From a virus (taxonomy: Duplodnaviria; Heunggongvirae; Uroviricota; Caudoviricetes), in the IMG/VR virus record IMGVR_UViG_2718218127_000001: a DNA stretch of 14,646 bases, one strand, 5' to 3'. Both the position numbers and the translations under genes were made by a program. Position 1 is the first letter of the stretch. Each line of letters starts with the position of its first letter. Below are positions 1 to 14,646 of the stretch, in pieces. The notes beneath the pieces were generated by a model. It was not told the DNA's origin, did not search any database, and worked only from the letters and a program-made list of their open reading frames with translations.

Positions 1-825
1 CTATTTCTTCTCTGTAATTTTTACACTGTTTTCCAACTGCTTGATGCTGACCTGCGGGGTCGGCAACTCCTCAGGCATGGTTCCGCCAAGTTCCTGAATG
101 GTTTGCCTCACCTTGCGACCCACGTCAAAGTGTGTGGTGTTTGCTTGCTGTTTTGAATTCACGCCATCCCGCTTGAGTTTTTCTTCTGTTTGGGTAGCTC
201 GAAAGAGATTAGCCGCCAGTTCTGTTGAACCCATATGATCCAGGATCTTCTGATTCTTTTTCAGCCCCTTCCGCTGATGAATAGCTTTCTGATCTAATCC
301 ACCATACAGCCCCTGGTAACCATGATTCTGAAATATGGCGAAATCAGTAGCTGTCGCTACCCCAGCTTGCTGTGCTGCCTCAACCAATTGTTTGTTATGT
401 TCTTTCAACTCATTTCTCAGAAACAGACGCTTTTCGTCTTCACGAAGTTGCTTAAATGCTTCATCGTCAGCAAGCTCCTGCCGTCGGGTCTGGATAGCAA
501 AATAAGTCTGCCCTGCCGCAATGACCGGTTTCGCAGGGTCGCCGTTTTGTACTACCAGGTAACAGGCATAGCGGGAGAGTACGATGTCTTTTAATGCTCT
601 TTTGGCATTTGAGCCAATTTTGACCATATCGAGGATCTCCTCGAAATGGTCATCAATTGTGTGACCACTGTTCTCACAGGCTTCTTTGGCGCGCGTTAAT
701 ACAGGTATAAAGTGACGATACTCTGAATAACCCAGTAGTTTCCCAAGTTGTCTTGCTGACCATTGTTCTGCTCCGTTTGCATTAATCAGTTTTATCTCTT
801 CAAAAGGTTGATGATGTTCGTTCAT
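1..825 (-). CDS. dinD: DNA damage-inducible protein D (DinD-like), 274 aa from the internal ATG
   Basis: Track ORF 1..837 (-). The protein from MNEHHQPFEEIKLINANGAEQW matches my recollection of E. coli DinD. The track's extra MEWA residues are read across the Shine-Dalgarno (GGAGTGGG) that sits upstream of the ATG at 823-825. A LexA box lies about 46 bp upstream. Confidence 0.7.
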   Translation of the reverse strand: MNEHHQPFEEIKLINANGAEQWSARQLGKLLGYSEYRHFIPVLTRAKEACENSGHTIDDHFEEILDMVKIGSNAKRALKDIVLSRYACYLVVQNGDPAKPVIAAGQTYFAIQTRRQELADDEAFKQLREDEKRLFLRNELKEHNKQLVEAAQQAGVATATDFAIFQNHGYQGLYGGLDQKAIHQRKGLKKNQKILDHMGSTELAANLFRATQTEEKLKRDGVNSKQQANTTHFDVGRKVRQTIQELGGTMPEELPTPQVSIKQLENSVKITEKK

Positions 826-870
826 TGCCCACTCCATGTGATATCAATTGCAAAGAAAGTAAATCTGTAA

Positions 871-886
871 CTGTATTTATATACAG
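871..886. promoter_or_regulatory. LexA operator (SOS box) in the dinD promoter
   Basis: CTGTATTTATATACAG fits the CTGT-N8-ACAG consensus with an AT-rich spacer, directly upstream of the dinD start. In dinD orientation it reads AACTGTATATAAATACAGTT. Confidence 0.75.
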
Positions 887-1268
887 TTGTGAGTATCTCA
901 CGTTCTCAGTGTGCTGGGCAAAAAAACATCGCAAAATCTGGAGCAGGCACGCAAAACAGAATTGAATGTTGCGGGGAAGAAAAATGCCGCTCTGTTTGAG
1001 TGGCGGCATTTGTGAAGGCGGAAAAGTAAGAATTGGCGTTACGAGTTATTCGATGTTGAATCTGTTTATTGAGTAGTGGCTTTAAATGCCCGTGGTTGCT
1101 GTGTTTCTTGTAATGCGTTTTCTCAGTAGGTACACCCTTGTGTACACGGTATTTTGAGGTGCTGTCTTTGGCTGCTCGTTTTATGCTCTCATGCTTGCTG
1201 TTCTGGCCTCTTATCTTTTGCGCCTTATTGTATGATAGTGCTATCCCACAATAAGGAACCTGCCAGCT

Positions 1269-1628
1269 ATGAGAATGACCAGCCGCAAAAAAGAGATACT
1301 TAGCTACTTTGAACCGGATAACCTCGAATGGGTGACTGGTGAGATTGGTGCGCCGCCGTTCGATGTGTCGGGTGTGGCCTACCTGCTTCATGGCATGGTG
1401 TCGTTCGATAAGCGCCACCAGATCGAATCAACCCGGCGCACACTGGAAAGCATGGTTGCTGGTGGACTGCTTGAGCGGGTGACAGTGTATGAATCGCGCC
1501 AGATACGGCGCGGCGGTGATACTAACGCAACGGTCGTGCGCTACGGTTTACCCGGTCAGTGCGCTGTTATGCGCGATACTGGCGGCGCTGATAACGCAAT
1601 ATCAGGTGAATACATGCGGGTCAGTTAA
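1269..1628 (+). CDS. hypothetical protein, 119 aa; the only plus-strand gene, divergent from dinD; may be the distal island gene or chromosomal
   Basis: Track ORF with ATG start at 1269 and AAGGAA upstream. No family recognised. Confidence 0.45.
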   Translation: MRMTSRKKEILSYFEPDNLEWVTGEIGAPPFDVSGVAYLLHGMVSFDKRHQIESTRRTLESMVAGGLLERVTVYESRQIRRGGDTNATVVRYGLPGQCAVMRDTGGADNAISGEYMRVS

Positions 1629-1860
1629 TAGCCTGCAATCTGTCGTTGATGCGGCTCAGGTCGTAAACCCGGCGTTCAATATCCAGCATCAGGAAATTGT
1701 GGATCTCGGCCTGCTCAGGATTATCAGACTCTCTGGCCTGTAATAGCAATTCATTGTAACCATGCAAACCGCCTGAGTTTTCCGCCGGGGTGGCGCCTTT
1801 CCCACGCAGGCAGCTAATGGGCTGATTGCTCGTATAGTTACATGTGGAATAATCCCATAT

Positions 1861-2046
1861 CTACCTACGCGGCGCTGGCTTCTTCCACTGGTAGGCAGGT
1901 GCTCGCATCATTTCGCGGAACCTGTCGCGCCGGGCTATATCGGCATTAACTGAGCGTTCTATCTCCCGTTGATCTGCCAGTGTAAGCTGGTGGCCTCCGT
2001 GCTCAAGTTTGGCGATGGTCAATAAAGCTATTTCGCGTGGTGTCAT
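1861..2046 (-). CDS. hypothetical small protein, 61 aa
   Basis: Track ORF with ATG start and an AGAGGG motif upstream. No recognisable domain. Confidence 0.3.
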   Translation of the reverse strand: MTPREIALLTIAKLEHGGHQLTLADQREIERSVNADIARRDRFREMMRAPAYQWKKPAPRR

Positions 2047-2253
2047 ACGTCATACCCTCTGGAAGGATGAAACACGCCCGGATTAAATTTCATTTTTCGC
2101 GGGTATGAAAAAACGATGGGGCGGGCAGTCCTTAAGGCTCAGGGTTGCAGAGATTTGGCCTCCCCCTCCCGGTGATAGTTTATTGCTTGATGTGGACGGC
2201 TTGCTATATTGGCGGCGAATGCAAATTGTCGCAGAAGTCTATCCCGTTCCTTG

Positions 2254-2279
2254 ACGCCCCGTGCGGGCGTTTTGCTTTT
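2254..2279 (+). terminator. putative rho-independent terminator on the plus strand
   Basis: Stem ACGCCC, loop CGTGC, stem GGGCGT, then TTTGCTTTT. The opposite strand has no U-tract. Confidence 0.35.
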
Positions 2280-2889
2280 ACAAAGTCAGGCCAATGCCTC
2301 TGGCTGCTTTCCCCGCCTTACGCTCAACCATGCCCGTGATTCTATCTACTACCGGACTGAATGCCTGCCAGTAAGCCACCTCCATTGCTGACAACTCTGC
2401 CCGCTTCCTGTCAAACGTAGCCCAGCGCATCCCCTTTGGTTTTGGGAACATGCGAATGTCATTAAACAGATTATTGGCAAGGTCATTGCTTCCCCATATC
2501 GCGCATCGCTGCTGGCGTATCTTCATTCGCATCCTGTCCAGTCTGTCGGCGCTCTGGCTTTTATAGTGGAGTTTCCAGCACGCCCGGCAGCCAATATCTT
2601 TCTTGCCGATATACAGCTTTGCAGCCCGTTTCATACAGTGGGGACAAACGTACCATTCCCGGACGCCATACCCGGCTTGTGTGGTCGTGGTTCTGATTGC
2701 CCGTGTAACGCCGTTGATTGTCATGGCGTAGCTGTCGGCTTGCCGGAAGGTATACAACGTTCCGCTTTCGGTCTGGGTATAAAGCTGCGTCCCCGGTTCG
2801 GCGTCCGCCAGCCTGCTACGCATGTTCGCAAGGAATGGCAACCCTATACGGGGCAGGTCGGTGATATAGCTGCGCGTTCTGTCTCTCAC
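2278..2889 (-). CDS. hypothetical Cys4 zinc-ribbon protein, 203 aa
   Basis: Track ORF. The start is GTG, preceded by a perfect AGGAGG 7 nt upstream. Contains CPHC-x14-CRAC (C-x2-C ... C-x2-C). Confidence 0.55.
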   Translation of the reverse strand: MRDRTRSYITDLPRIGLPFLANMRSRLADAEPGTQLYTQTESGTLYTFRQADSYAMTINGVTRAIRTTTTQAGYGVREWYVCPHCMKRAAKLYIGKKDIGCRACWKLHYKSQSADRLDRMRMKIRQQRCAIWGSNDLANNLFNDIRMFPKPKGMRWATFDRKRAELSAMEVAYWQAFSPVVDRITGMVERKAGKAARGIGLTL

Positions 2890-2992
2890 TGGCGGGCCTC
2901 CTGCGAATTACTGCGCATTAACTGCGAACGGTGCGCAAAAATGAATGCGAAATAATATGCGTATTTTACTGTAAATTGCGCACTATTTTGCG

Positions 2993-3110
2993 CACTGCGA
3001 ACCAATGGCGCGAGCCAGAATATTTTGGACTGCCTAAATCGAATATGGCTTCCAGCCCGCTACTGGCGCGGTTCTCTCTTCATATGGGCTTTGAGTCTGT
3101 CCAGTACAGT
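2993..3110. repeat. regulatory repeat block A (copy 1 of a duplicated ~80-110 bp module)
   Basis: Shares with block B a conserved stretch of the form ACCA-TGGCGCGA-CCAGAATATT-TGG ... CCTAAATC ... TTCCAGCC ... CTGGCGCGG, followed by a CTGT-N5-ACAG dyad (about 3097-3109). Preceded by several TGCGCA hexamers. Confidence 0.6.
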
Positions 3111-3143
3111 CCAGTATTTCAACATCGGTGACTATACGGATTG

Positions 3144-3521
3144 CTAACATGCGCCGTTTTTTTTAACCCTTCGCAGATCCCGCCTTGCTTGCATTGAAAC
3201 GGATCTCGCTAAACTCAGCTCAAGCCGTGCGATTCTGTCGGCATGTAGCCCCATGAGTCCGTTAATCAATGTCATCTCGCGCCATTCTTCTGTTCCCGGC
3301 GTCGGATTAGTCGCCAGTAATAGCCCGTATCTCTCAGCCATCATGAGGTTTCTTGCACGATTTCGCACCAGCGGAGAAAGCGCATCTTCTCCCTCAAACG
3401 GGAAGAATGCCCGCCTACTGCGTTCGCCATGTTTGACGGCATTAGTATTGCCCAACGGTGCGCCTGCGCCTTTCCGCTTGCCACCCCATCCGGATCTTGA
3501 TTGTTGGCTATTTTTTTTCAT
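3144..3521 (-). CDS. hypothetical basic protein, 125 aa; possible small-terminase-like or packaging-redirecting protein
   Basis: Track ORF with ATG start. The N-terminus GKRKGAGAPLGNTNAVKHG resembles motifs I associate with small terminase-type DNA-binding proteins; this is from memory and unverified. Confidence 0.5.
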   Translation of the reverse strand: MKKNSQQSRSGWGGKRKGAGAPLGNTNAVKHGERSRRAFFPFEGEDALSPLVRNRARNLMMAERYGLLLATNPTPGTEEWREMTLINGLMGLHADRIARLELSLARSVSMQARRDLRRVKKNGAC

Positions 3522-3575
3522 TTAACGGCTCACTGTGCGCAAAAACCCTAACTGAATGCGCGGTTTTGCTGCGTA

Positions 3576-3705
3576 CCTGACTGCGTACTGCGTACCAGTG
3601 GCGCGAACCAGAATATTCTGGACGACCTAAATCACGCTCTGGTTTCCAGCCCTCTGCTGGCGCGGGTTTAGCGCTACTTGGGTTTAAAATCTGTCAAGAA
3701 CAGTC
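3576..3705. repeat. regulatory repeat block B (copy 2), upstream of the 125-aa gene
   Basis: Contains the perfect 14-bp palindrome CCAGAATATTCTGG (about 3608-3621), a CTGTCAAGAACAG dyad (about 3691-3703) and CTGCGTAC repeats. It is the direct-repeat partner of block A. Confidence 0.6.
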
Positions 3706-3735
3706 TAGAATTTTAGCCTGCGTTCGGTGCGAACC

Positions 3736-4086
3736 TCACGGCACAGACGAGTACCAGTAAAAGCCTGTTAGCCCGGCATCGCAGCGCTCACGATTAAGCA
3801 CACGTGGCGGGTTTTCTCTGGTCATCAACTCAAGCAAGGCATTGCTTCCCTGCGTCTCCAGTCGGTATTGCCTGTCGGTAGTGGTAATGGCATCCGGCAA
3901 TAACTTTATGGCGGCCTGGCTAAAGTCTCGCGGTGCGCCGTAAAATTGCGCATCAACAATATGAACCACATCGCCGTTAATCGTTGTCCGATAACGGTCT
4001 GGCTGTATAGTAAAGCCCCCACAATGGATAGCAGATAGTGCCGGTGCCGATGAGATCAGGACGGCTGCCAGAATGTATGGCTTCAT
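3736..4086 (-). CDS. hypothetical secreted protein, 116 aa
   Basis: Track ORF with ATG start and GGTGGGTGA upstream. The N-terminus MKPYILAAVLISSAPALSA looks like a Sec signal peptide. Two Cys residues. Its start overlaps the upstream stop as ATGA. Confidence 0.55.
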   Translation of the reverse strand: MKPYILAAVLISSAPALSAIHCGGFTIQPDRYRTTINGDVVHIVDAQFYGAPRDFSQAAIKLLPDAITTTDRQYRLETQGSNALLELMTRENPPRVLNRERCDAGLTGFYWYSSVP

Positions 4087-4724
4087 TCTTCACCCACCAA
4101 TTCATCCAGTTCAGCCAGCGTCATAGGCTTTGGTACAGGCTTGTCAATATCACCCATAATGCGCTGGAAGTTTCTGGCAGGCATATGGTTACGGTTCTCC
4201 AGTATTTTCGCCAGCGCGATAACATCCCACCATTTCAGGGCAATCAGCGCCTCAGCACGGGAAAGTGATATTCTCTGTATATCAGCATCCTCTCCACCAG
4301 CCACCCGGTATACCTCTGATAAATCACGAACATTTTTCATGTCTGCTTTCCCGGACGTTTCCATCAGTGCGTTAATATCATCCCCCGTATAGCGTGATTG
4401 CGCGACGATACCAGCCAGAGAGATAACCATATCCCGGCATACCTGGTCTATCAGACGTAATCTGGCGTCATCGTTCGAGAGGGTGTAAGACTTAACCTCA
4501 GCCACATTCCGTGGATAGTTGGCGTGCCATACCGCGACGGCTCCACACTCATCAACATCGCCGCTAAGGTAGGTTTTTGCCACTCGGTTATTACCCGATA
4601 ACGCAATTTCTACCTCCTGTATGCCGAAAAACCATGCGGCTATCGCATGACCTGCTTCGTGTATTGCGAGATGTCTGGGCCAGCGATAGCTGCCTAACTC
4701 GATAATGATGGGTTGCGTACTCAT
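4083..4724 (-). CDS. putative zinc metallopeptidase with an HEAGH motif (FtsH/M41-like active site), about 213 aa, no AAA+ or transmembrane region
   Basis: Track ORF 4083..4781. I prefer the internal ATG (MSTQPI...) because the longer form overlaps the SSB-like gene by 47 nt and the internal start has GAGAGGGAA upstream. The motif IHEAGHAIAAW is identical over seven residues to the FtsH zinc-binding signature. Confidence 0.5.
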   Translation of the reverse strand: MSTQPIIIELGSYRWPRHLAIHEAGHAIAAWFFGIQEVEIALSGNNRVAKTYLSGDVDECGAVAVWHANYPRNVAEVKSYTLSNDDARLRLIDQVCRDMVISLAGIVAQSRYTGDDINALMETSGKADMKNVRDLSEVYRVAGGEDADIQRISLSRAEALIALKWWDVIALAKILENRNHMPARNFQRIMGDIDKPVPKPMTLAELDELVGEE

Positions 4725-4734
4725 ATCTTCCCTC

Positions 4735-5196
4735 TCAGAATGGCGTTTCATCGTCGAATGGTGGGCGTTGGTCAAAATCATCAGGGGTATTATATAACTC
4801 CCATCCCGGCGCGGATTGTGTTGTGTGGCCCCTGCTGGCTCCGCTTGCTTTGACTGATTCGGCCCGCTTCCCGCCGGGGCGTACCGTTCTGGCGCTGATC
4901 ACGCTGTCGGCTACTACCTGATAACCTTGCTGTGTACCGCCATCCTTGCCCGTCCACTGATTGATCTGCATCGCTCCGGCAACACTGACTAAATCGCCTT
5001 TAACGTGTCCTGCCAGTGCGTCGGCCTGTTTGCCGAATGCCACCACGCCCAGCCAGAAAGTAACCTCTCCGCCCTCTGCTGTATGGCAGGGCAGTGCCAC
5101 CGCTAACCGTCCCATTGCCATGCTTGTACCGTTCGTTGTGGTACGGGTCTGGGGATCTGCCACCAGCCGCCCGTATGCTGAAATTTGTGCTGTCAT
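4735..5196 (-). CDS. single-stranded DNA-binding protein (SSB-like OB fold with acidic C-terminal tail), 153 aa
   Basis: Track ORF with ATG start and GAGGAA upstream. The pattern W..VVAFGK.A......KG..V.V.G.....W....G......VV parallels the E. coli SSB core, and the C-terminus ...PPFDDETPF resembles the SSB ...DFDDDIPF tail. Confidence 0.65.
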   Translation of the reverse strand: MTAQISAYGRLVADPQTRTTTNGTSMAMGRLAVALPCHTAEGGEVTFWLGVVAFGKQADALAGHVKGDLVSVAGAMQINQWTGKDGGTQQGYQVVADSVISARTVRPGGKRAESVKASGASRGHTTQSAPGWELYNTPDDFDQRPPFDDETPF

Positions 5197-5495
5197 AGAT
5201 ATTTCCTCATGTAGTCACTACCTCCGGGGATAATTTTCATTTCTTCCCTTAAAGGCCACTGCTCCGCCATTGCTGCGGTCGAGTGATTCCCGTCATCACG
5301 TCCGGCCTGTGCTGCCGTCCAGTGTGTTGCATATTCTGTAAATCCAATTTCTGCTGGCTGCCTCATCCAGTGGGCGATCATCCTCAAGGTCATTTGCAGG
5401 CTTTGGGTGTCGCCCTGTAATGCGCGTTTGTCAGTAAACCCCTTCAATGCTTCACGCTCCTGATAGGTCATTTTCTGGCTGGTTTCTGTATTCAT
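5193..5495 (-). CDS. hypothetical protein, 100 aa; first gene after the origin
   Basis: Track ORF with ATG start and GAGGTG 5 nt upstream. Its stop overlaps the SSB-like start as ATGA. Confidence 0.5.
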   Translation of the reverse strand: MNTETSQKMTYQEREALKGFTDKRALQGDTQSLQMTLRMIAHWMRQPAEIGFTEYATHWTAAQAGRDDGNHSTAAMAEQWPLREEMKIIPGGSDYMRKYL

Positions 5496-5548
5496 TGCCC
5501 ACCTCGTTATAAGCTACCCCCCCCATAGAATCTTTTTGGGGGTGTAAT

Positions 5549-5813: not shown

Positions 5814-8255
5814 TCAATCATCACTCTGCCCGCTCTCCACACCGTAAGCGCGTGGCATGAACTCCTCAGCCTTCTCGTTATAGCCAACGTTGGTTTGCGC
5901 TCTGCCGTTAATGCTTCTCGTCAGGTAGCTGGCTCGGTACTCTTTTGCTGCTGATTTTATGGCGCGTGAAAACTTATTGACGGAAAGCGGTTTACCCAAA
6001 CCGTGATACTCCATAAACGCCAGATAAAGATGATAAAGATACGTCCTCGGCTCTGGCTGGCCTGCCCATGTACCTCCGCCCATCATCATGCCTTTGGGTT
6101 CGTTCATGAAAAAAAGCGCCGCACACATATCGACAACCGGATCCGTGCCGCGTTTAACCTCTAGCGCCTCCTGCGAATCGCGCTGCTCTAGTAATAGTGC
6201 CTTTGCTTTGTTCTGGTCGGCAAAGGTGGTTAGCAGGTGGCGGATAATCACCGGGATTTCTCGCCTGATTTTTGCGGTTAAATCCGGGTCTTTGTCTGCG
6301 TCTGATACCGGGTTATTAAACGGGAATATCACGCGGCGGCGGGCAATGCCCCCGTTTCGCTCCGTGAATGTCATTGGCTCGTTATTGGTTGCCATAACAA
6401 CGGCATTTATCACGGTTGTGAACTGCTTTTCATATTTCCCATCAATCTCTACCGGATCGCCGCCCGTAATGGCTTTAATCCCCGCACCCTCTCCAACGTA
6501 GCGGGTCTGGTCAGGCATAATAATCAGGCTTTTCCCTACGAACTGCGCCCGTCCCCGTGCGGTGTCCAGCGTCATCATGCTACCGCTGGCGGTGTTGTGT
6601 TCACCTGCCAGCGTGGTTGCTATGCTGCTGAATACGGATTTCCCACTGCCGCCCTCGCCAGTTATCTCAATGAATAGCTGCCAGTCGTGACGCTTCGCCA
6701 GCACCATAAACAAGGCTGCTTTGATACGCTCGGCCTTATGATGGTCGCCAGCCGTTGCATGATTCAGCCAACGGGTAAAATTGGGGGCGCTGGTGGAAAT
6801 ATTCTCCCCCGGCGCTGGCGGGGTGTAGGTGATCCCATTGTGGTTCATCAGCCAGTTACCCGGCGAATGGGCGGAAAACGTCTGCGTAGCGAGGTCATAA
6901 ACGCCGTTATCAAAACCAATCAGATCCCCGCTCCGCTCACCAATTACCGGTATTTGCAGCTTCATGGTTGCGACAACCGATTTAATCCCTTTTTCGGTGT
7001 AGTGGGCTTCGTGCTCGTCGAAAATTGCCACCATAACCCTTTCTAATTCGCTGTCTGGTAGCTTCACCCATACGCCAGATTCGTAGCAGTAAACAGCGCC
7101 ACTATCAGGGTTGACCGCCAACATATCCCAGCGAGATGAAAGCAACCGCGCTTTCTGGCTGGCTGCCATTTGTGCAATATCTCCGACTTCGGCTTTACGG
7201 CGGGATTTACCGCCCACAATGGCCTGTAGTTGTGGTTTCACGGCTTCCCCCTGAATCTGGTACATCGAATCGTTAAACGCAGCCGTAGCGACTTCCAGCC
7301 CGTTTTGCTGGCGGTAGTCGTCCCAGTCGGCTTTGTAGTCTGTCGGCGGCAGCGCCACCCAGCCAGCCACGGATAAGGCGGCTTTCTCTGCGGCATCTTT
7401 GCCCGTGTTCGCCTGTTCGTCCTGCTGGTGGTCGTTATCTGCGGCAATGATAATTTGCGACTGCGGGTGTTTCCGGCGCATTACTCCGGCAACGTGGATC
7501 AGGTTCCCGGCGTCAATTGCCGCCACTGTAAGCGCGTCCGGGCGCATCAGGTGAACGGACAGGGCCGTCGCCAGCCCCTCGGCAATTAATACGCTCTGCG
7601 GCTGTTCTGGTGCGTTTACGGCGTGATATGCCCCGCGCTTTGCTGAACCTGTCAGGAGTCGCTTCTCTCCCTGCGGTGTAATGGTTTGCGCTGCTGCCAC
7701 TGCGCCGGATTCGTCCACCAGCTCCAGCAATAACGAACCATCCGGCATAACCGGATAGTTAAACCCGGTCAGCCCTTTTGATTGCAGGTAATCAGATTCT
7801 CCCTGTGTGGCACTCTGGCGCATTCCGGCATACAGACGGGCAAACGTAGCCCTTCGCTGCTCTGCATCCTCTGCTGCCTGTTTCTGGCGCTCCTGCTCAC
7901 GCTGCTGGCGGTCAGCTTCCAGTTGCTCTCTTCTATGGCTCGCTGCCACCGGGTCGGTTTGCGCTGCCCGGTAATCAATACCCAGCACATCAGCGGCAAG
8001 CTGTGCCGCCTCCGTAGTGTCGCAGTTGTTCACCTTCTTAATCAGGTCTAAACCGTCACCAGCGCCACACTGATTGCAGATAAAGCTACCGCGCCCGTTG
8101 TCGTCGAATCTGAAACGGTCTTTTCCACCACATGCAGGGCATGGAGAATGGCGGCGCGATGAATCAGGCACGTCGATAGACAATCCAGCCAGCACATAAG
8201 GCCAGCGCCCGGCGGCGGCACTGGTCACTTCGCGGATAAGGTCGATATTACGCAT
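5814..8255 (-). CDS. P4-alpha-like bifunctional DNA primase/helicase, 813 aa
   Basis: Track ORF with ATG start. N-terminal zinc ribbon CPACGGKDRFRFDD...FICNQCGAGDG, a central TOPRIM-like region, and a C-terminal NTPase with Walker A GEGGSGKS. Confidence 0.88.
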   Translation of the reverse strand: MRNIDLIREVTSAAAGRWPYVLAGLSIDVPDSSRRHSPCPACGGKDRFRFDDNGRGSFICNQCGAGDGLDLIKKVNNCDTTEAAQLAADVLGIDYRAAQTDPVAASHRREQLEADRQQREQERQKQAAEDAEQRRATFARLYAGMRQSATQGESDYLQSKGLTGFNYPVMPDGSLLLELVDESGAVAAAQTITPQGEKRLLTGSAKRGAYHAVNAPEQPQSVLIAEGLATALSVHLMRPDALTVAAIDAGNLIHVAGVMRRKHPQSQIIIAADNDHQQDEQANTGKDAAEKAALSVAGWVALPPTDYKADWDDYRQQNGLEVATAAFNDSMYQIQGEAVKPQLQAIVGGKSRRKAEVGDIAQMAASQKARLLSSRWDMLAVNPDSGAVYCYESGVWVKLPDSELERVMVAIFDEHEAHYTEKGIKSVVATMKLQIPVIGERSGDLIGFDNGVYDLATQTFSAHSPGNWLMNHNGITYTPPAPGENISTSAPNFTRWLNHATAGDHHKAERIKAALFMVLAKRHDWQLFIEITGEGGSGKSVFSSIATTLAGEHNTASGSMMTLDTARGRAQFVGKSLIIMPDQTRYVGEGAGIKAITGGDPVEIDGKYEKQFTTVINAVVMATNNEPMTFTERNGGIARRRVIFPFNNPVSDADKDPDLTAKIRREIPVIIRHLLTTFADQNKAKALLLEQRDSQEALEVKRGTDPVVDMCAALFFMNEPKGMMMGGGTWAGQPEPRTYLYHLYLAFMEYHGLGKPLSVNKFSRAIKSAAKEYRASYLTRSINGRAQTNVGYNEKAEEFMPRAYGVESGQSDD

Positions 8256-8589
8256 GGTTGCCTCCTGCCACGGTCGCGCCCATGTCTTTAACCATGCTTT
8301 GCCATATCTCGCGCCCGACGTCAGTCAATCCGTCCTTAGTGACGCAACGCTCAAGAAGCTCGACCCCCACGGTTTCCCACTGCGGGTAGGACACTTTCAT
8401 GGCTGCCAGTGTGTAGCTATCGATCAGGCTGCGAACGCCTTTTACTCCATTGACGATTTCCACACGGACGGCGAGGCCGTCCGCATCAACCATGAAATAG
8501 TCCCCGCCGCTGGTGGAGGTAATGTGGTTATACAGTGCCGACGCATATTTATTAGCCAGCGCATTCAGTCGGAAATTTTTAGTAATCAT
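8248..8589 (-). CDS. hypothetical protein, 113 aa
   Basis: Track ORF with ATG start and GAGGGG upstream. Overlaps the primase start by 8 nt. Confidence 0.55.
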   Translation of the reverse strand: MITKNFRLNALANKYASALYNHITSTSGGDYFMVDADGLAVRVEIVNGVKGVRSLIDSYTLAAMKVSYPQWETVGVELLERCVTKDGLTDVGREIWQSMVKDMGATVAGGNHA

Positions 8590-8597
8590 GTCGCCCC

Positions 8598-9224
8598 TCA
8601 GTGCGGCAGCGGCATTTCAGGCCAGCCGTTTTCATCCAGTTCAGCTATAAAGCTGTTGTGAAGTTCAGCAAGCGTTTCACGTCCGAACGGGGTAAGCTCG
8701 CCGCGCTCCGTATCCAGCATCGCCTTATAAAACACAATGGCTTTTTCCGTACCCTGTTCGACGCCGTATCGCTCAATCATTGCGCCCTCGATGTTGTTCG
8801 CCATCGCCAGCCGTTCAGCAAACGGGTAAATCACCATGCCCGCATTACCATTGGAGTAAATCGCCACCTGCGATGTTGTGCCGTCAGCCTCCGTGACGGA
8901 GGTTGTGCCGTTTTCGCGCTTCATTTCAGAAACGAACTTCGCAGCAATCAGCCAGCGCCACATAGTGACGTTATGCTGCGCGGTAAAGTCGAACCAGCCA
9001 CGCGCCCCGCCATCAGCAACGGCAAAATGAATGGCGTAGCCGATATCTGGCGTATCGTCGTACTCTCCCGCATCCAGACGGCTTACAGCGCTCTCATAGG
9101 TGATAATGGCTACATGCTCATACATCCCGGCATCATTGCGGGTCATGATGTTTACGCCGTGCGGTGTGGCTTCGGCGTGTAATAAGTCGGCATTTCCCGA
9201 TTTAATGGTCGGTGCGTTGCTCAT
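8598..9224 (-). CDS. hypothetical protein, 208 aa
   Basis: Track ORF with ATG start overlapping the upstream stop (ATGA). No domain recognised. Confidence 0.55.
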   Translation of the reverse strand: MSNAPTIKSGNADLLHAEATPHGVNIMTRNDAGMYEHVAIITYESAVSRLDAGEYDDTPDIGYAIHFAVADGGARGWFDFTAQHNVTMWRWLIAAKFVSEMKRENGTTSVTEADGTTSQVAIYSNGNAGMVIYPFAERLAMANNIEGAMIERYGVEQGTEKAIVFYKAMLDTERGELTPFGRETLAELHNSFIAELDENGWPEMPLPH

Positions 9225-9484
9225 GCGCTGCCCTCCGCATCAATTCTGGCTATATCGACAATCGTCAGGACTTTACTAAGCCAGCAATACACGATTTCGG
9301 CCTGTTCATCGTTTAGTTGAGTGGCTAAATCGGTCATAACGTGAGCCAGCCCATTGCGGGCGCGGGTCATGCGTTCTGCCGTTCGGTCTGCCAGCGTAAA
9401 ATCATCCGGGTAAGCCTGCTCGCGGGATAACATCGCTTCGGCTTCCAGCTCTGCCGGGTGGCGATAGATGGTAGTTATGTTCAT
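9221..9484 (-). CDS. hypothetical acidic protein, 87 aa
   Basis: Track ORF, part of the coupled operon. Confidence 0.45.
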   Translation of the reverse strand: MNITTIYRHPAELEAEAMLSREQAYPDDFTLADRTAERMTRARNGLAHVMTDLATQLNDEQAEIVYCWLSKVLTIVDIARIDAEGSA

Positions 9485-9795
9485 TTGCCCGCCCTCCCTT
9501 TGGCTTCTTTTTCACTGATTGAGCGCAAGAATGCGGCGTTTGCAGCGCTATCGTTCAGCGCCCGCGCAACTTCTCCGATATGTCCCAGCATTGCGCCTAA
9601 TCTGTACATATCAGCCCTAACGCTTTCCGCCGGGTAGTCATCGCTATTAGCCGCCCAGAACATGAGGCTACCGATGGCACTTACGCCCAGCATTAAATCA
9701 TTCACGGCATCACTGGCGCGGCTCTCAATTCCGTTCAGATCATCAGGTGTACAACCATCAAAGTCGCAGGACACTAAATCGTTATACAGGCTCAT
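9481..9795 (-). CDS. hypothetical protein, 104 aa
   Basis: Track ORF with ATG start overlapping the upstream stop (ATGA). Confidence 0.45.
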   Translation of the reverse strand: MSLYNDLVSCDFDGCTPDDLNGIESRASDAVNDLMLGVSAIGSLMFWAANSDDYPAESVRADMYRLGAMLGHIGEVARALNDSAANAAFLRSISEKEAKGRAGK

Positions 9796-9971
9796 GCTGC
9801 CACCTCACGAACGCGGGTAATCTGGATGTGGGAAAGGCGTTCATTTCTGGCCTGATTTAGCGCCTCAGCTTTGGCGCTGATCGCGCTGCGGGCGTCAACG
9901 ATATAAACGAACTCGACTAATTCGCCGCTCCGGGCGGTGGCGCATCCTGCAACACGGAAGTAATTAAGCAT
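9792..9971 (-). CDS. hypothetical small protein, about 59 aa from the internal ATG
   Basis: Track ORF 9792..10001 begins with TTG. The internal ATG (MLNYF...) has AGGGGG upstream and overlaps the preceding stop by 8 nt. Confidence 0.35.
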   Translation of the reverse strand: MLNYFRVAGCATARSGELVEFVYIVDARSAISAKAEALNQARNERLSHIQITRVREVAA

Positions 9972-10155
9972 GTGCGCCCCCTGTGCGAATACGTCCGGCA
10001 AAAAAGCAAACGTGATCCCGCGCCAGAATGCGGCGGGCTTCCTGCTCAGTCTCTGCGGCGATATGGTGAATTTTGGCGGTAATTGTCGGCATATCGCGGC
10101 GAACTGCTGCGATAATCCAGATAAATTGCGGTTTTTGGGTAGGGGTAGTAGCCAT
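9964..10155 (-). CDS. hypothetical small protein, 63 aa; first gene of the replication-module operon
   Basis: C-terminal part of the track's 250-aa GTG ORF. It has an ATG with a strong AAGGAGG 8 nt upstream (MATTPTQKPQ...). Confidence 0.45.
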   Translation of the reverse strand: MATTPTQKPQFIWIIAAVRRDMPTITAKIHHIAAETEQEARRILARDHVCFFAGRIRTGGAHA

Positions 10156-10182
10156 TATGGCAGCCTCCTTTGTGTTTAAGGA

Positions 10183-10221
10183 GTCACCGCCTGAGTTTCC
10201 ACGCTCTGAAATGGCGGTGAC
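10183..10221 (-). promoter_or_regulatory. stem-loop in the 5' leader of the replication-module operon
   Basis: Inverted repeat GTCACCGCC ... GGCGGTGAC (9-bp arms, about 21-nt loop). On the minus strand it is followed by TCCTT, which could pair with the AAGGAGG of the 63-aa gene. Confidence 0.3.
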
Positions 10222-10345
10222 GTTAGCAGGGGTGGAAATACCGGACACAAAGGAAACCGGCCTACGCGAACGTAGCCCCACTAACGCCACCATAGATACA
10301 GTACGGACGAGGCCGCTGATTTGATGTGCGTAGTGATCGGACACA

Positions 10346-10367
10346 AAAAAAGACGCTTTCGGCGTCT
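10346..10367 (-). terminator. putative rho-independent terminator on the minus strand
   Basis: Minus strand reads AGACGC-CGAAA-GCGTCT followed by TTTTTTT. It sits between the regulatory module and the replication module. Confidence 0.45.
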
Positions 10368-10654
10368 GTGTCGCCCTTAGTGTGTTCGGGTTTCCACGCC
10401 CGGTTGCTGATTTTGCAGCAACGCTTGGACTATAACAGCTTTTCTCTGCTAGGTGGTCATACCAGATAAAACCGTAACCCTTTAAGAGTTTTTCCTGTGC
10501 ACGGCTCACCATCTTTTTGTTGAGGGTAAGCGCCTCGCGTACTGGTAACGGAACTCCGGGCGCTGCGGTATCAATATCAGGTTTTGTAAGGTTGCAGATG
10601 TCAACTTTTGACAACATGCCAGCCAGATTAAAGGCTTCTTTCTGGGCGGCAGGT

Positions 10655-10837
10655 TCATTCAGTATCACGGCGCACCTCCACGAACTCATTAACGAATCTC
10701 TCCAAAGGCTGAACACATGGCGACTGATAGCCCTCGCGGTAAAAGGTCACTCGGTTATGCTCGACGCGCTGTACGGTCACTACAGCCCCGTGACTGTCCT
10801 TGTAACGGCTTCCCGGCATCGGATTATGGTTACGCAT
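10655..10837 (-). CDS. hypothetical small protein, 60 aa
   Basis: Track ORF with ATG start and GGAGGT 6 nt upstream. Overlaps the upstream stop by 8 nt. Confidence 0.5.
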   Translation of the reverse strand: MRNHNPMPGSRYKDSHGAVVTVQRVEHNRVTFYREGYQSPCVQPLERFVNEFVEVRRDTE

Positions 10838-11663
10838 GGTTTACCTCCAGACGTTTAGCGAGCCAGCGCTGAGAGAGGCGGATTAGCTCGGCTTTACGCA
10901 GGTCATATCCCATACCCATATCAATTAACGTGATATTGGTGCTTTCGAGATAGGCGAGGTGTTCAAGCTGTGCTGCGTTCATGCTGTCCCGTGGTTCGCC
11001 AGTAATGCCATTTGCCTGCGCCCACTGCTTCGCCGTCATGCCACCCAGCACGATACGGGCGATCATGTTGCTCTCGTTGCTGTAGTGGCGCTGCTGCGTC
11101 GTTTTACCCTGCTCGGCACGGGCCATATTCAGCGCATCGCACATTGGCTTAAAGTTGTTTGCGGCACTGATACGGGCTTTTAGCTGGCGACGATAGCGGG
11201 CGGCGATTTCAGGCACGCTACGCTGTAATTCTTCCTCGCACTGGATGAAATAACGGCGGATAGCGCGGCCCTGTTCGGTGCGTTCGACCATCGCCAGTTC
11301 TTTCGCCATTCCGACACTTAACAGATAGTCTTTGCCGGGTCTGCCAGACTGTTTAATCTTGCTGTAAGCCGCGCCATTCGGGCTTTTCCCCAGATTTGGG
11401 GAAATTGTTTTATGGACTGAGTAATCGTGCCCAATGGTGAAGTCATATTCAGAGATGCGATCAGCGATCCATGTAGAGAAGTCTTTTCCCACGCCCAACG
11501 CTTTGTGTAACGCTTTTGCGCTAACAATATTGGTTTCACGCCCACCGATATGACCAGGAATAACCGGGACAATTGTGGCAAATTCATTACCGTTAATTGT
11601 TCCCTGATAGGCGTTCAGATGAGGGGCGGCCTCAGAAATTAATCTGCTTTTTTCGATGTTCAT
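10830..11663 (-). CDS. phage antirepressor-like regulatory protein (AntA/KilAC-like), 277 aa
   Basis: Track ORF with ATG start and GGAGA upstream. The segment DYLLSVGMAKELAMVERTEQGRAIRRYFIQCEEEL resembles phage antirepressor / Bro-KilA type proteins; this assignment is from memory. Confidence 0.45.
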   Translation of the reverse strand: MNIEKSRLISEAAPHLNAYQGTINGNEFATIVPVIPGHIGGRETNIVSAKALHKALGVGKDFSTWIADRISEYDFTIGHDYSVHKTISPNLGKSPNGAAYSKIKQSGRPGKDYLLSVGMAKELAMVERTEQGRAIRRYFIQCEEELQRSVPEIAARYRRQLKARISAANNFKPMCDALNMARAEQGKTTQQRHYSNESNMIARIVLGGMTAKQWAQANGITGEPRDSMNAAQLEHLAYLESTNITLIDMGMGYDLRKAELIRLSQRWLAKRLEVNHA

Positions 11664-11675
11664 TTTCAGTCTCCG

Positions 11676-12110
11676 TTAGGCGGCGGTGAGATTGTCCGGG
11701 TATAGGTTGAGAATGTCGGCAATTTCAGGCTGAGAAAGTCCCTGATAGCCGCCAGCGTCGGCGTTATGGTTCACAAGCCGAATAACTTTCAGAACGTCAC
11801 CGCGCCCGGTAAAGCGATAGCGTAAATGTGACCCTATCCCGTCGGGGTTCTTTTCGTCTATACGCTCAAGCTGAATATCAAGCCTGCGCTCTAACTCACT
11901 GGCGTAGTTCCTTCCAGACGAAAGGCGGCAATAACGCAGAATGTCGTTTTCTGTCCATCCCTCTACGCCAGTACGCAGCATATAGACGCGGGCGCGGTGT
12001 TTCTTTGGGGTTCGCTTAGGTACTTGTACCGGGCTGGTGGTCGGCGTAATATCAGACGTGCGAATATCTGAGTTAGCCGCCTGCTGTACGGGGCGGTTTT
12101 TCTTTTTCAT
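11676..12110 (-). CDS. hypothetical basic protein, 144 aa
   Basis: Track ORF. Its ATG overlaps the alpA stop (TAATG), so it is translationally coupled to alpA. Confidence 0.5.
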   Translation of the reverse strand: MKKKNRPVQQAANSDIRTSDITPTTSPVQVPKRTPKKHRARVYMLRTGVEGWTENDILRYCRLSSGRNYASELERRLDIQLERIDEKNPDGIGSHLRYRFTGRGDVLKVIRLVNHNADAGGYQGLSQPEIADILNLYPDNLTAA

Positions 12111-12313
12111 TACGCCACCTTTCCCCGGCGCTCCGCCAGCCAGTTGTGAATATCAGCCGCATCAAAGGCGGTAATCTTCTCGCCCAGCTTTACCGGACGT
12201 GGTAGTGAACCGTTTCTTACTTTACGGTCGATGGTGGATACACTAACGCCCAGCAATTCAGCCAGGCGAAAGCGTCTGATATAGCCTTTTGTAGGGATAG
12301 TGTCGATGTTCAT
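12110..12313 (-). CDS. alpA: AlpA-family (Vis/excisionase-like) HTH transcriptional regulator, 67 aa
   Basis: Track ORF with ATG start and AAGAGG upstream. The helix-turn-helix LAELLGVSVSTIDRKVRNG and its small size and position next to a P4-type integrase are typical of AlpA/Vis. Confidence 0.72.
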   Translation of the reverse strand: MNIDTIPTKGYIRRFRLAELLGVSVSTIDRKVRNGSLPRPVKLGEKITAFDAADIHNWLAERRGKVA

Positions 12314-13271: not shown

Positions 13272-13386
13272 TGCGTCACCTTTCACGCTACGCCTTAATG
13301 AGCGATTGAGTCAGGCGGTAAGGCTTCCCGCTTTTCACCCCGTCGGGCTAGACTCAATCTGTCCTCTGATTCTTTACATATCTTGG

Positions 13387-14646
13387 TTACTTCGCCTTTC
13401 TCAGCGGTGTAACGTTGTATTCCTGCCCCTGTTCCAGTGCCACCAGCAATCCCGCCCACTGTGTTAACGCGGCCCGGCGTTCATCAAAGTATTGGTGGCG
13501 GTTATAGATACCCTCCACGCCTTTAATTTTGTGGTTGAGGCATCTTTCAGCCACTACGGGATCAACGCCCAGCGCGGCTAAATGGGTGCGGGCTGTGCGC
13601 CGGAAGTCGTGAATAGTGAAATTCGGCACGTCCGGCATTTCAGCGCGAACCTTAGCCAGTGCTACGGGTAAAGTGCTTTCCTGAATATGTGGGATCATGC
13701 GGTTTTGCATCTTTCTGGCTGGCAGTACCCATGCGCTGTTGCATGAGAACGTTTTAAGCTCTCTCAGCCATTCGACGGCTGGCGGTGCTAATGGAATGTC
13801 TATAGCGTCGCCGTTTTTGCTGCGTTCCTCTGGCAAGCGCCATACGGCTTTATCAAAATCGAACTCCTCCCAGCGGGCGGCGCATAACTCCATTTTGCGG
13901 ACGCATAACGCTAACAGTAATTTGAACGTGATTTCGTTCTGGCGACTGAATCCCTTAGCCGTGCGCATGGCTTTGAATAGCTGGATTAACTCATCGCGGG
14001 TTAACCAGCGGTCACGGGCAACTTCTTTCCCTCCAGCGTCGGCAACCTCAAAGGCTGAACACGGGTTAATCTCCAGTGCGTGCCGCTTAATGCCGTAGTC
14101 AAATATGCGGCGTGTCCAGCGCAGAACGTCCGTTGCTATGGTCGGCGCTCCACGGTCAACAATACCTTTCAGCATGTCATCGATATGGCGCGGCTTCACG
14201 TCCTCCACCTTCATGCTGCCAATGCAGGGGTTTATATCTTTGTCGATACGGCGGCGGAGTATATCGGGGTGCTTCCAGCGCGGAAGGATCTGACGCTCAA
14301 AGTATTCAGCGGCAAGCTCTGAAACGCGCATAGCGTTCTTCTCTGCTTCCATCTTCGCCAGTGCTTCGGTTTTGCGCCTCTGCTTCTCTCCTGCAACGTC
14401 ATAGCCCAGCGCAACGCGAGCCGATAGCTCTTTGGCTGTCTCTCTGGCCTTTGATAGTGATAGCTCGGCATATGAGCCAATCAGCATGGCGCGGGGTTTC
14501 CCTGCGAATTTATAGCGGAATCGCCAGACGGGGGTCTGGTAGTTTTCGCGGTATGAAAGATAAAGCCCGTTACCGTCAGAGCGTCCCTCGAATCGCTCCC
14601 CGGCCTTTATCCATGCGCGGATCTGCATGTCTGTGAGTTTTGGCAT
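13387..14646 (-). CDS. int: P4-type tyrosine integrase, 419 aa; start codon at the window edge
   Basis: Track ORF with ATG at 14644-14646. N-terminal arm-binding-like region (GLYLSYRENYQTPVWRFRYKF) and a C-terminal catalytic region with the HDFRRT...H..Y tyrosine-recombinase pattern. Confidence 0.9.
   Translation of the reverse strand: MPKLTDMQIRAWIKAGERFEGRSDGNGLYLSYRENYQTPVWRFRYKFAGKPRAMLIGSYAELSLSKARETAKELSARVALGYDVAGEKQRRKTEALAKMEAEKNAMRVSELAAEYFERQILPRWKHPDILRRRIDKDINPCIGSMKVEDVKPRHIDDMLKGIVDRGAPTIATDVLRWTRRIFDYGIKRHALEINPCSAFEVADAGGKEVARDRWLTRDELIQLFKAMRTAKGFSRQNEITFKLLLALCVRKMELCAARWEEFDFDKAVWRLPEERSKNGDAIDIPLAPPAVEWLRELKTFSCNSAWVLPARKMQNRMIPHIQESTLPVALAKVRAEMPDVPNFTIHDFRRTARTHLAALGVDPVVAERCLNHKIKGVEGIYNRHQYFDERRAALTQWAGLLVALEQGQEYNVTPLRKAK

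Follow-up and report, generated by a model that had tools for sequence, protein, structure and literature searches.

A P4-type immunity cassette, probably an antisense-RNA switch, ahead of the replication genes of a satellite-type island

The stretch at positions 10156-10654 of the window (the whole 14,646-nucleotide viral DNA analysed, IMG/VR record IMGVR_UViG_2718218127_000001) most probably represents an immunity cassette of the P4 type, carried by a satellite-type island, an antisense-RNA switch placed before the replication genes; we put the probability of this reading at about 0.8. The cassette is made up of RNA elements within a frame that is required to stay translatable, and is not a plain non-coding region, an ordinary gene or a decayed gene. 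It is a clear but ordinary further example of the switch known from satellite phage P4 and phage P1, and it extends the known biology of P4, P1 and Gifsy-1 without constituting a new kind of system; the modest and testable additions made here are a frame-conservation result, a specificity code and a possible hairpin switch. We observed the identity and order of the elements, their complementarities, their covariation and the conservation of the frame. The cassette is most likely what keeps the replication genes of the island silent and provides the route to switching them on. Its recognition also corrects an annotation error. The same DNA has been annotated as a 233-234-aa 'Icd-like protein', as a pseudogene for an 'ash family protein' or as a 'transcriptional repressor', and the correct label is mainly an RNA cassette within a frame that needs only to be translatable.

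The genes around the cassette are the following.

13387-14646, minus strand: integrase
10655..12313, minus strand: co-oriented genes upstream of the cassette (Pfam, PHROGs, PGAP)
12110-12313, minus strand: alpA
10830-11663, minus strand: AntA antirepressor
10655-10837, minus strand: DUF4222 gene
9964..10155, minus strand: icd/kil-like gene of 63 aa; following the RNAs, it is the first that can be translated independently
5814..9971, minus strand: downstream operon that the switch is predicted to control, made up of five small genes overlapping by 4-8 nt and, after them, the P4-family primase
5814-8255, minus strand: P4-family primase with Zn_Ribbon_Prim, Toprim_3, DUF5906 and D5_N domains
after the primase in gene order, minus strand: SSB

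From the integrase onward the order on the minus strand is integrase, an int-alpA RNA motif, a 286-aa ORF, alpA, a 144-aa ORF, AntA, the DUF4222 gene and the cassette. The NCBIfam model phage_ICD_like matched residues 11-58 of the 63-aa protein (E = 1e-20), and in the 250-aa frame that contains it the match covered only residues 198-245, the last 48 of the long frame; identity of the 63-aa protein was 41% with P4 Kil and 33% with Icd of phage D6. No Pfam or PHROG match to sid, psu or delta was found among the ORFs of the window, which is perhaps not the whole island. Because of this and of the int-alpA-primase layout, the element looks like a PICI-type satellite related to P4. Near-identical islands occur in E. 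coli: 482 of 5426 complete genomes had a match, and in 37 the match covered at least 80% of the query. The island of E. coli CUWW10 lies at a tRNA-Thr gene and adjoins proA. The layout of four zones described for satellites (integration, Bro, replication and late genes; PMC10111431) is the same as that seen here. The same paper (Mageeney et al. 2023, PMC10111431) mentions in passing that the Rfam C4 and isrK models find matches within Bro-network genes of several GN-PICIs and HE-PICIs; unlike the present work, it treats these 'Bro-zone' RNAs without target mapping, covariation or reading-frame analysis.

An Rfam search, one of the checks that the earlier note had proposed, returned three curated families on the minus strand of the cassette (c4-a1b1, isrK and the C4 antisense RNA), all full-length and above the gathering threshold. 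Together with the sites that they contain or target, they define the elements below.

10429..10437, minus strand: putative constitutive promoter, equivalent to PLE/PisrK, with the extended -10 TGtTATAGT, placed by alignment
10383..10435, minus strand: c4-a1b1 motif (RF03163), 55.1 bits against a gathering threshold of 46.7
10346..10422, minus strand: short RNA like IsrK and P4 seqA (isrK, RF01394), 72.2 bits against a gathering threshold of 50, full length
10422-10403, 10403-10387 and 10367-10351, minus strand: hairpins of the IsrK-like RNA, the second being the a1 hairpin and the third the terminator stem-loop, with its T-run at 10351-10345
10398-10390, minus strand: a1 core, CGUGGAAAC, in a hairpin loop
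10386-10372, minus strand: b1 site, AACACACUAAGGGCG, which varies jointly with b'
10298..10345, minus strand: spacer between terminator and C4, differing in length among loci in multiples of 3 only
10210..10297, minus strand: antisense RNA like C4 and P4 CI (RF01695), 81.1 bits against a gathering threshold of 45, model positions 1-87 of 87
within it, minus strand: an outer stem of 17 bp enclosing two hairpins, with the b' loop UUUCCUUUGUGU at 10256-10245 and the a' junction AUUUCCAC at 10239-10232
10214-10212, minus strand: 3' CCA of C4, following the stem
10183..10221, minus strand: conserved 9-bp hairpin with a2 in its loop, also present in P4 and in the P1-like phage D6
10203-10195, minus strand: a2, again CGUGGAAAC, in the loop of that hairpin
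10165-10183, minus strand: local CUCCUU/AAGGAG hairpin, in which CUCCUU at 10183-10178 pairs with the Shine-Dalgarno AAGGAG
10176-10164, minus strand: b2 target, AACACAAAGGAGG, including the icd Shine-Dalgarno AAGGAGG (10170-10164)

Of 24 related loci, 22 were also matched by the Rfam models; these come from 15 or more enterobacterial genera, and the match lies each time just upstream of an Icd-like gene. In the other two the RNAs were absent even with a permissive Rfam threshold. Comparisons were made on a set of 24 sequences consisting of the window, P4 and 22 loci. P4 itself was matched by the same models, C4 on its CI RNA (8507-8420) and isrK on seqA (8692-8615). P4 and the window align column for column through GGAGGCUGCC and AUG-GCU-AC, with a shared order of seqA, terminator, CI RNA, seqC, Shine-Dalgarno and kil and a common SD-GCUGCC-AUG junction. 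Judged from this alignment, the locus is homologous to the P4 immunity region and not just analogous to it. The suggestion that an RNA-based switch analogous to that of P4 gates the replication operon has thus come out stronger than it was put, with the same Rfam models and collinearity that extends to the first gene.

The IsrK-like RNA ends in the stem-loop at 10367-10351 followed by seven T (10351-10345), which coincides with the 3' end of the isrK match. A terminator scan of 9900-10900 returned this minus-strand site as the only terminator-like one, in agreement with the earlier reading of the hairpin and T7 tract as an intrinsic terminator. Across the 24 sequences 98.9% of the cells of the isrK-like fold were paired, and compensatory changes on both sides were seen at 6 of 16 pairs. 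When pairing partners were slid by 1-3 columns as a control, for this fold and for that of C4, only 31-53% remained paired. Upstream of this RNA, P4 has TTGCCT, 18 nt and TATAGT, and 22 loci have TTGCCG, 18 nt and TATGGT. In the window and in locus L010 the -35 is displaced by an insertion, and both have TG one base upstream of the -10. A generic sigma-70 scan of 9900-10900 gave no site, so the promoter is placed solely by this alignment, and transcription would start at about G10422.

For the C4-like RNA, the minimum free energy structure was the Rfam family fold (-38.9 kcal/mol, z = -4.75). Its pairing was almost complete in the 24 sequences (99.6% of cells), and 14 of 27 pairs had changed on both sides. 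The 3' CCA is strongly conserved, with C84 and C85 invariant and A86 present in at least 90%. Structure prediction and covariance analysis, which had been suggested as checks, thus both gave positive results, here and for the leader as a whole (below).

The a' junction and b' loop of C4 have two sets of predicted targets. In the window the b':b2 duplex comprises 12 contiguous pairs (-15.0 kcal/mol) and covers the icd Shine-Dalgarno, whereas the b':b1 pairing is imperfect and bulged (-9.0 kcal/mol); the a' junction AUUUCCAC can pair with CGUGGAAAC at both a1 and a2, with -8.1 kcal/mol each. The main predicted contact of the Shine-Dalgarno is accordingly placed, by modelling, between the b' loop of C4 and b2. 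The 24 sequences contain 7 types of a' and 18 types of b', and the targets vary jointly with them; a' reads UUUCCAC in the window type, UUCUCAC in that of L030 and P4 and GUUCCAA in that of L027. Mean duplex energies for cognate and non-cognate combinations were -9.4 and -2.9 kcal/mol at a1, the same two values at a2, -11.3 and -3.1 kcal/mol at b1, and -14.0 and -5.2 kcal/mol at b2. Concerted switches of a', a1 and a2 were observed even among E. coli islands that are 93-98% identical, and one of these switches leads to the P4-type a sequence. This a/b specificity code yields a testable prediction of mutual immunity among satellites.

The stem-loop with 9-bp arms that had been noticed at 10221-10183 proved to be a conserved element. 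In the 24 sequences, P4 included, 97.4% of its cells were paired, with compensatory changes at 5 of the 9 pairs. Its 5' arm is shared with the base of the C4 outer stem (common nucleotides 10221-10215), so the two structures compete, and at two positions full compensation was seen in the downstream arm of the hairpin against mere wobble in the C4 stem. The whole 283-nt leader folded better than shuffled sequences (z = -4.0), and in this full-leader fold the 9-bp hairpin coexists with a cis duplex between b' and the Shine-Dalgarno. In 13 of 22 loci, folds constrained to form the a2 hairpin had the Shine-Dalgarno paired to the b' loop; in most loci the canonical C4 fold was still better than the a2-hairpin alternative by 3-17 kcal/mol. 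The competition between the conserved a2 hairpin and the C4 stem is left unexplained by the simple model. Folding suggests that a cis-silenced conformer of the unprocessed RNA, like 'structure A' of Gifsy-1, is possible.

Two other roles for this segment were considered and rejected. The earlier note had pointed to a TCCTT after the stem-loop that could pair with the Shine-Dalgarno. Such pairing can indeed form through CUCCUU at 10183-10178 and AAGGAG, and the segment containing it and the 9-bp stem-loop folds with -22.5 kcal/mol (z = -3.4), but the hairpin occurs only in the window, L010 and L015 (3 of the 24 sequences) and in D6, and was dropped as a family feature and as the core of the switch. 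Pairing of the downstream arm of the 9-bp hairpin in trans with C4 was also discarded, the order of the elements not being collinear with the a'/a2 and b'/b2 pairings.

By analogy with P4, P1 and Gifsy-1, the switch would work as follows. Transcripts would start at about 10422 from a weak constitutive promoter near 10437-10429, and most would end at the intrinsic terminator (10367-10345) to give a 77-nt IsrK/seqA-like RNA carrying a1 and b1. Read-through RNA would hold the C4/CI-like RNA (10297-10210), which would be excised with RNase P acting at its 5' end; the tRNA-like stem and the CCA may assist this processing. The complementarities and the covariation show that the a' junction and b' loop of C4 pair with a2 and b2, and also with a1 and b1. 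Pairing of b' with b2 would block translation of icd, leaving bare nascent RNA on which transcription would end early, as it does with Rho in P4, so that all genes of the operon as far as the primase would stay silent. After induction, transcripts from alpA would be translated through the cassette as the long ORF, from GTG 10668 and coupled to the DUF4222 gene. The ribosomes would melt the RNA structures and so prevent termination, allowing the replication genes to be expressed.

The same elements could be used differently if the logic of Gifsy-1 (isrK, STnc1160, orf45, anrP) were dominant, with the IsrK-like RNA acting in trans as an activator or decoy and control being mainly translational and not by termination. 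Gifsy-1 likewise has a short terminated IsrK RNA and a translationally silent read-through transcript that carries a C4/CI-like RNA; the literature treats IsrK as structurally homologous to seqA and STnc1160 as similar to CI (PMC4825925). The isrK match in the window is full length, terminator included, a' and b' find complements in a1 and b1, b' is paired with the Shine-Dalgarno in the predicted cis fold, and IsrK activates translation of orf45-anrP in Salmonella. The gene context here is nevertheless P4-like (primase operon and eta-like frame) and not of the AntQ/AnrP kind: in Gifsy-1 an antirepressor and, indirectly, the AntQ antiterminator lie downstream, in place of the primase operon. 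In addition, P4 seqA is needed to establish immunity, according to the paper that writes of P4's 'IsrK-C4 immunity system' (PMC3632133). Activation in trans has been shown for IsrK of Gifsy-1, and for the window the comparison is one of sequences. We regard dominance of the Gifsy-1 logic as rather unlikely. It is compatible with the model of a P4-type switch given above.

The remaining question was whether the cassette is also coding. The features concerned are two.

9964..10668, minus strand: long Eta/Ash-like ORF, 234 aa from GTG 10668, spanning the promoter and all RNA elements, in frame with icd/kil
10675..10679, minus strand: GGAGG Shine-Dalgarno of the Eta-like start, 6 nt upstream of GTG 10668

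In the ORF list a GTG frame of 250 aa (9964-10716, minus strand) does run through the whole stretch, as had been stated. The likely start of the long ORF is GTG 10668, which PGAP chose in E. coli CUWW10; begun there, the ORF shares 14 nt with the end of the DUF4222 gene. Pfam Phage_ASH (PF10554) matched residues 79-179, that is nt 10434-10132 (E = 1.2e-23), and matched P4 Eta equally; this span coincides exactly with the RNA cassette. PHROG 6928 also matched the long ORF. The N-terminal 76 residues had no Pfam or PHROG match on their own, and the long frames share an N-terminal peptide motif (MPALQKLPFSGL in P4 Eta, MPAVQKRDFPLAGLM in L004, EPAAQKEAFNLAGML in the window). An internal ATG frame (MLSKVDICNL...) that had seemed partly protein-like lies within this conserved translatable frame and is simply the N-terminal part of the long ORF. 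A 50-aa ORF at 10506-10658, whose ATG overlaps the DUF4222 stop, was set aside; it has no family matches and is not the conserved frame.

The frame was conserved as such. From a1b1 to the icd start one frame was free of stops in 24 of 24 sequences, the others generally containing stops (up to 7 each), and the long ORF was open in all seven E. coli islands. The distance from the start of isrK to the start of C4 was 98, 101, 125, 128, 140 or 185 nt, each of which equals 2 modulo 3. In L031 a 59-nt insertion and a 2-nt deletion (net +57 nt) retained the frame. No third-position bias accompanied this openness in the RNA segments. Among the seven E. coli islands, variable sites at codon positions 1, 2 and 3 numbered 2, 4 and 6 in a1b1/isrK, 4, 7 and 3 in C4, and 5, 5 and 6 in a2b2, as against 6, 5 and 23 in icd, where the bias is strong. 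Column entropies of the diverse loci agree, with means at the three positions of 0.80, 0.74 and 0.77 in C4 compared with 0.45, 0.37 and 0.99 in icd. Variability across the region matched by Phage_ASH was thus flat over the codon positions, not the pattern of amino-acid-level constraint. The statement that the stretch has no convincing protein-coding signal therefore held for codon bias in the RNA segments and failed for the frame itself, with its openness, in-frame indels and Phage_ASH match, and the proposed check for codon-level selection was split in the same way, finding none in the RNA segments but conserved openness of the frame.

The P1-like phage D6 was informative in this regard. Matches of the isrK type and to C4 were found in it, along with the a2 hairpin and icd, but each frame has 2-7 stops. 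Since D6 has the same RNAs yet stops in all frames, the open frame is not a by-product of the RNA sequences. Given a frame that is kept open, indels that preserve it, no codon bias and the closed frames of D6, translation itself seems to be selected. The act of translation would then be under selection, as in the model for P4, where ribosomes translate eta solely off the late transcript from upstream and so prevent termination, Kil being a truncated and separately translated form (PMC10111431). Contrasting the open frame of satellites with the closed frames of a P1-like phage gives a simple way to examine by computation whether termination is prevented by translation.

These data also bear on three other accounts of the stretch. 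If it were a purely non-coding structured leader and the long ORF an accident that is never translated, the flat codon positions and the N-terminal 76 residues without a family match would be expected. Such a leader would have no call for spacer lengths that all agree modulo 3, for a 57-nt net replacement that stays in frame, for a frame open in every sequence of the set and every E. coli island but closed in D6, or for a conserved N-terminal peptide motif behind a coupled start with GGAGG, and P4 eta has been reported to be translated (PMC10111431); we consider this account improbable. A genuine 234-aa protein gene (Ash or 'Icd-like'), in which the amino-acid sequence is important and the RNA matches are incidental, would be in line with the Pfam Phage_ASH and PHROG 6928 matches and with annotation as a CDS by PGAP. 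It is very hard to reconcile with compensatory base-pair changes in the stems (14 of 27 C4 pairs), with three separate sites that covary mutually, with codon-position entropies that are flat in C4 and not in icd, or with a Pfam domain that coincides exactly with the RNA elements; P4 itself carries an older 'cI protein' annotation for what has since come to be described as an RNA. That the stretch is the decayed remnant of a former gene, which the earlier note had named as its alternative, has in its favour that PGAP calls an 'ash family protein' pseudogene in L029 and L031. The frame of the window is free of stops and frameshifts, that of L031 is open, that of L029 continues in the phase of the next gene, and conservation of the elements extends over 15 or more enterobacterial genera, leaving decay with a next to negligible probability. 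The preferred reading remains that of RNA elements within a translatable frame.

Placed beside known systems, the cassette is closest to P4, whose immunity region consists of PLE, seqA, cI RNA/seqB, seqC, nested eta/kil, epsilon, orf151 and the alpha primase. The likeness comprises the order and spacing of the RNA elements, the same Rfam models, a homologous first gene, a long ORF that spans the cassette, matches Phage_ASH and is coupled to the upstream gene, a P4-family primase downstream and an alpA/vis-type gene upstream. Even the coupling is similar, as the first ATG of P4 eta overlaps the orf88 stop in the way that GTG 10668 overlaps the DUF4222 end. Differences were found in a' (AUUUCCAC in the window, AUUCUCAC in P4) and in b', in the distance from isrK to C4 (125 nt in the window, 185 nt in P4), in the putative promoter, where the window combines an extended -10 with loss of the conserved -35 spacing, and in the genes, the window having the 144-aa ORF, AntA and DUF4222 between alpA and the long ORF and no matches to sid, psu or delta. 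The immI region of P1 and P7 (c4 antisense RNA, a1/b1, a2/b2, icd, ant) was represented by D6. Matches to C4 and of the isrK type are common to D6 and the window, as are the a2 hairpin, the CUCCUU/AAGGAG hairpin at the Shine-Dalgarno and, immediately downstream, an icd homologue. The antirepressor of D6 comes after icd, whereas in the window AntA lies upstream and small ORFs and the primase follow icd, so that no antirepressor is translationally coupled downstream of icd as in immI. The isrK-to-C4 distance of D6 is 123 nt (0 modulo 3), and D6 lacks an eta-like frame, each of the three frames having stops across the cassette.

The nested arrangement of eta and kil is not universal, because 8 loci have their long frame in the phase of the gene after icd and not in that of icd; the same was seen in the E. 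coli locus L029. The +1 frame across icd was free of stops in 8 of 8 loci of this kind compared with 3 of 15 in-phase loci (one-sided p = 3e-4, uncorrected and ignoring shared ancestry; L022, in which the icd anchor was not located, is excluded from the phase statistics). The third possible phase never occurred. We advance tentatively, and at somewhat less than even odds, the idea that in PICI- and P4-type satellites the Ash/Eta frame is a 'translated leader', in which the act of translation alone is selected as a ribosome-driven bypass of the RNA lock. The restriction of the frame to the phase of icd or of the next gene fits such a leader. So would a conserved a2 hairpin that switches the unprocessed transcript to the cis-silenced fold, with b' paired to the Shine-Dalgarno, and a two-site a/b code that serves as a combinatorial barcode setting heteroimmunity between co-resident satellites.

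Immunity specificity in these islands may be set in part by a′, the C4 site complementary to a1 upstream and a2 downstream. Concerted differences at a1 (10390-10398), a′ (10232-10239) and a2 (10195-10203) were observed when the window was compared with three E. coli islands (L027, L030 and L031), and the a-site pair of L030, GUGAGAA/UUCUCAC, is of the P4 type. These islands are 93-98% identical to the window, and the concerted changes suggest that immunity specificity was switched recently. Two related loci, L021 and L023, gave neither a C4 nor an isrK match even at E <= 0.1, yet carry an Icd-like match and an int-alpA RNA; this makes the RNA cassette a separable module.

The DNA of the RNA genes has attracted conflicting protein annotations. 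PGAP applies two different labels to it, depending on the genome:

L001 11183-11884, 'Icd-like protein' of 233-234 aa
L027, L028 and L030, 483-1187 in each, 'Icd-like protein' of 233-234 aa
L029 462-968 and 995-1189, 'ash family protein' pseudogene, then 64-aa Icd-like protein
L031 462-1025 and 1053-1247, 'ash family protein' pseudogene, then 64-aa Icd-like protein

In PHROG 6928 the same DNA is labelled 'transcriptional repressor'; a 137-aa 'cI gene product' is still present in the P4 record. Each of these protein labels overlies RNA genes. Lambdoid phages (mEp460, Stx2 phages and ST64B) provide a further example of these RNAs within annotated ORFs: there, the DNA matched by the segment between C4 and the start of icd falls within annotated Rha or antirepressor genes (phage matches H22-H39).

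The phase of the long Eta/Ash-like frame that spans the RNA elements was compared with that of icd. In nine loci (L006, L008, L012, L016, L017, L019, L020, L025 and L029) it is the gene after icd, not icd itself, that is in phase with the long frame, which crosses icd stop-free in the +1 frame. Modulo 3, the C4-to-icd distance is always either 0 or 1.

Other features of the window are as follows:

13292-13358, minus strand, int-alpA RNA motif (RF02996, 57.1 bits)
10506-10658, minus strand, 50-aa basic ORF whose ATG overlaps the DUF4222 stop (ATGA)
within 1-5500, minus strand, co-oriented ORFs of 232, 116, 125, 203 and 170 aa downstream of SSB

The int-alpA motif, also found in most related loci, is flanked in the window by the integrase and a 286-aa ORF without family matches. 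The 50-aa ORF is probably spurious, because it has no family matches and lies outside the conserved frame. None of the five ORFs downstream of SSB has a Pfam match, and most also lack a PHROG match; an incomplete ORF of 278 aa at the edge of the window, on the same strand, matches PHROG 8036, of unknown function. Positions 1-5500 may represent an accessory or defence zone of the island.
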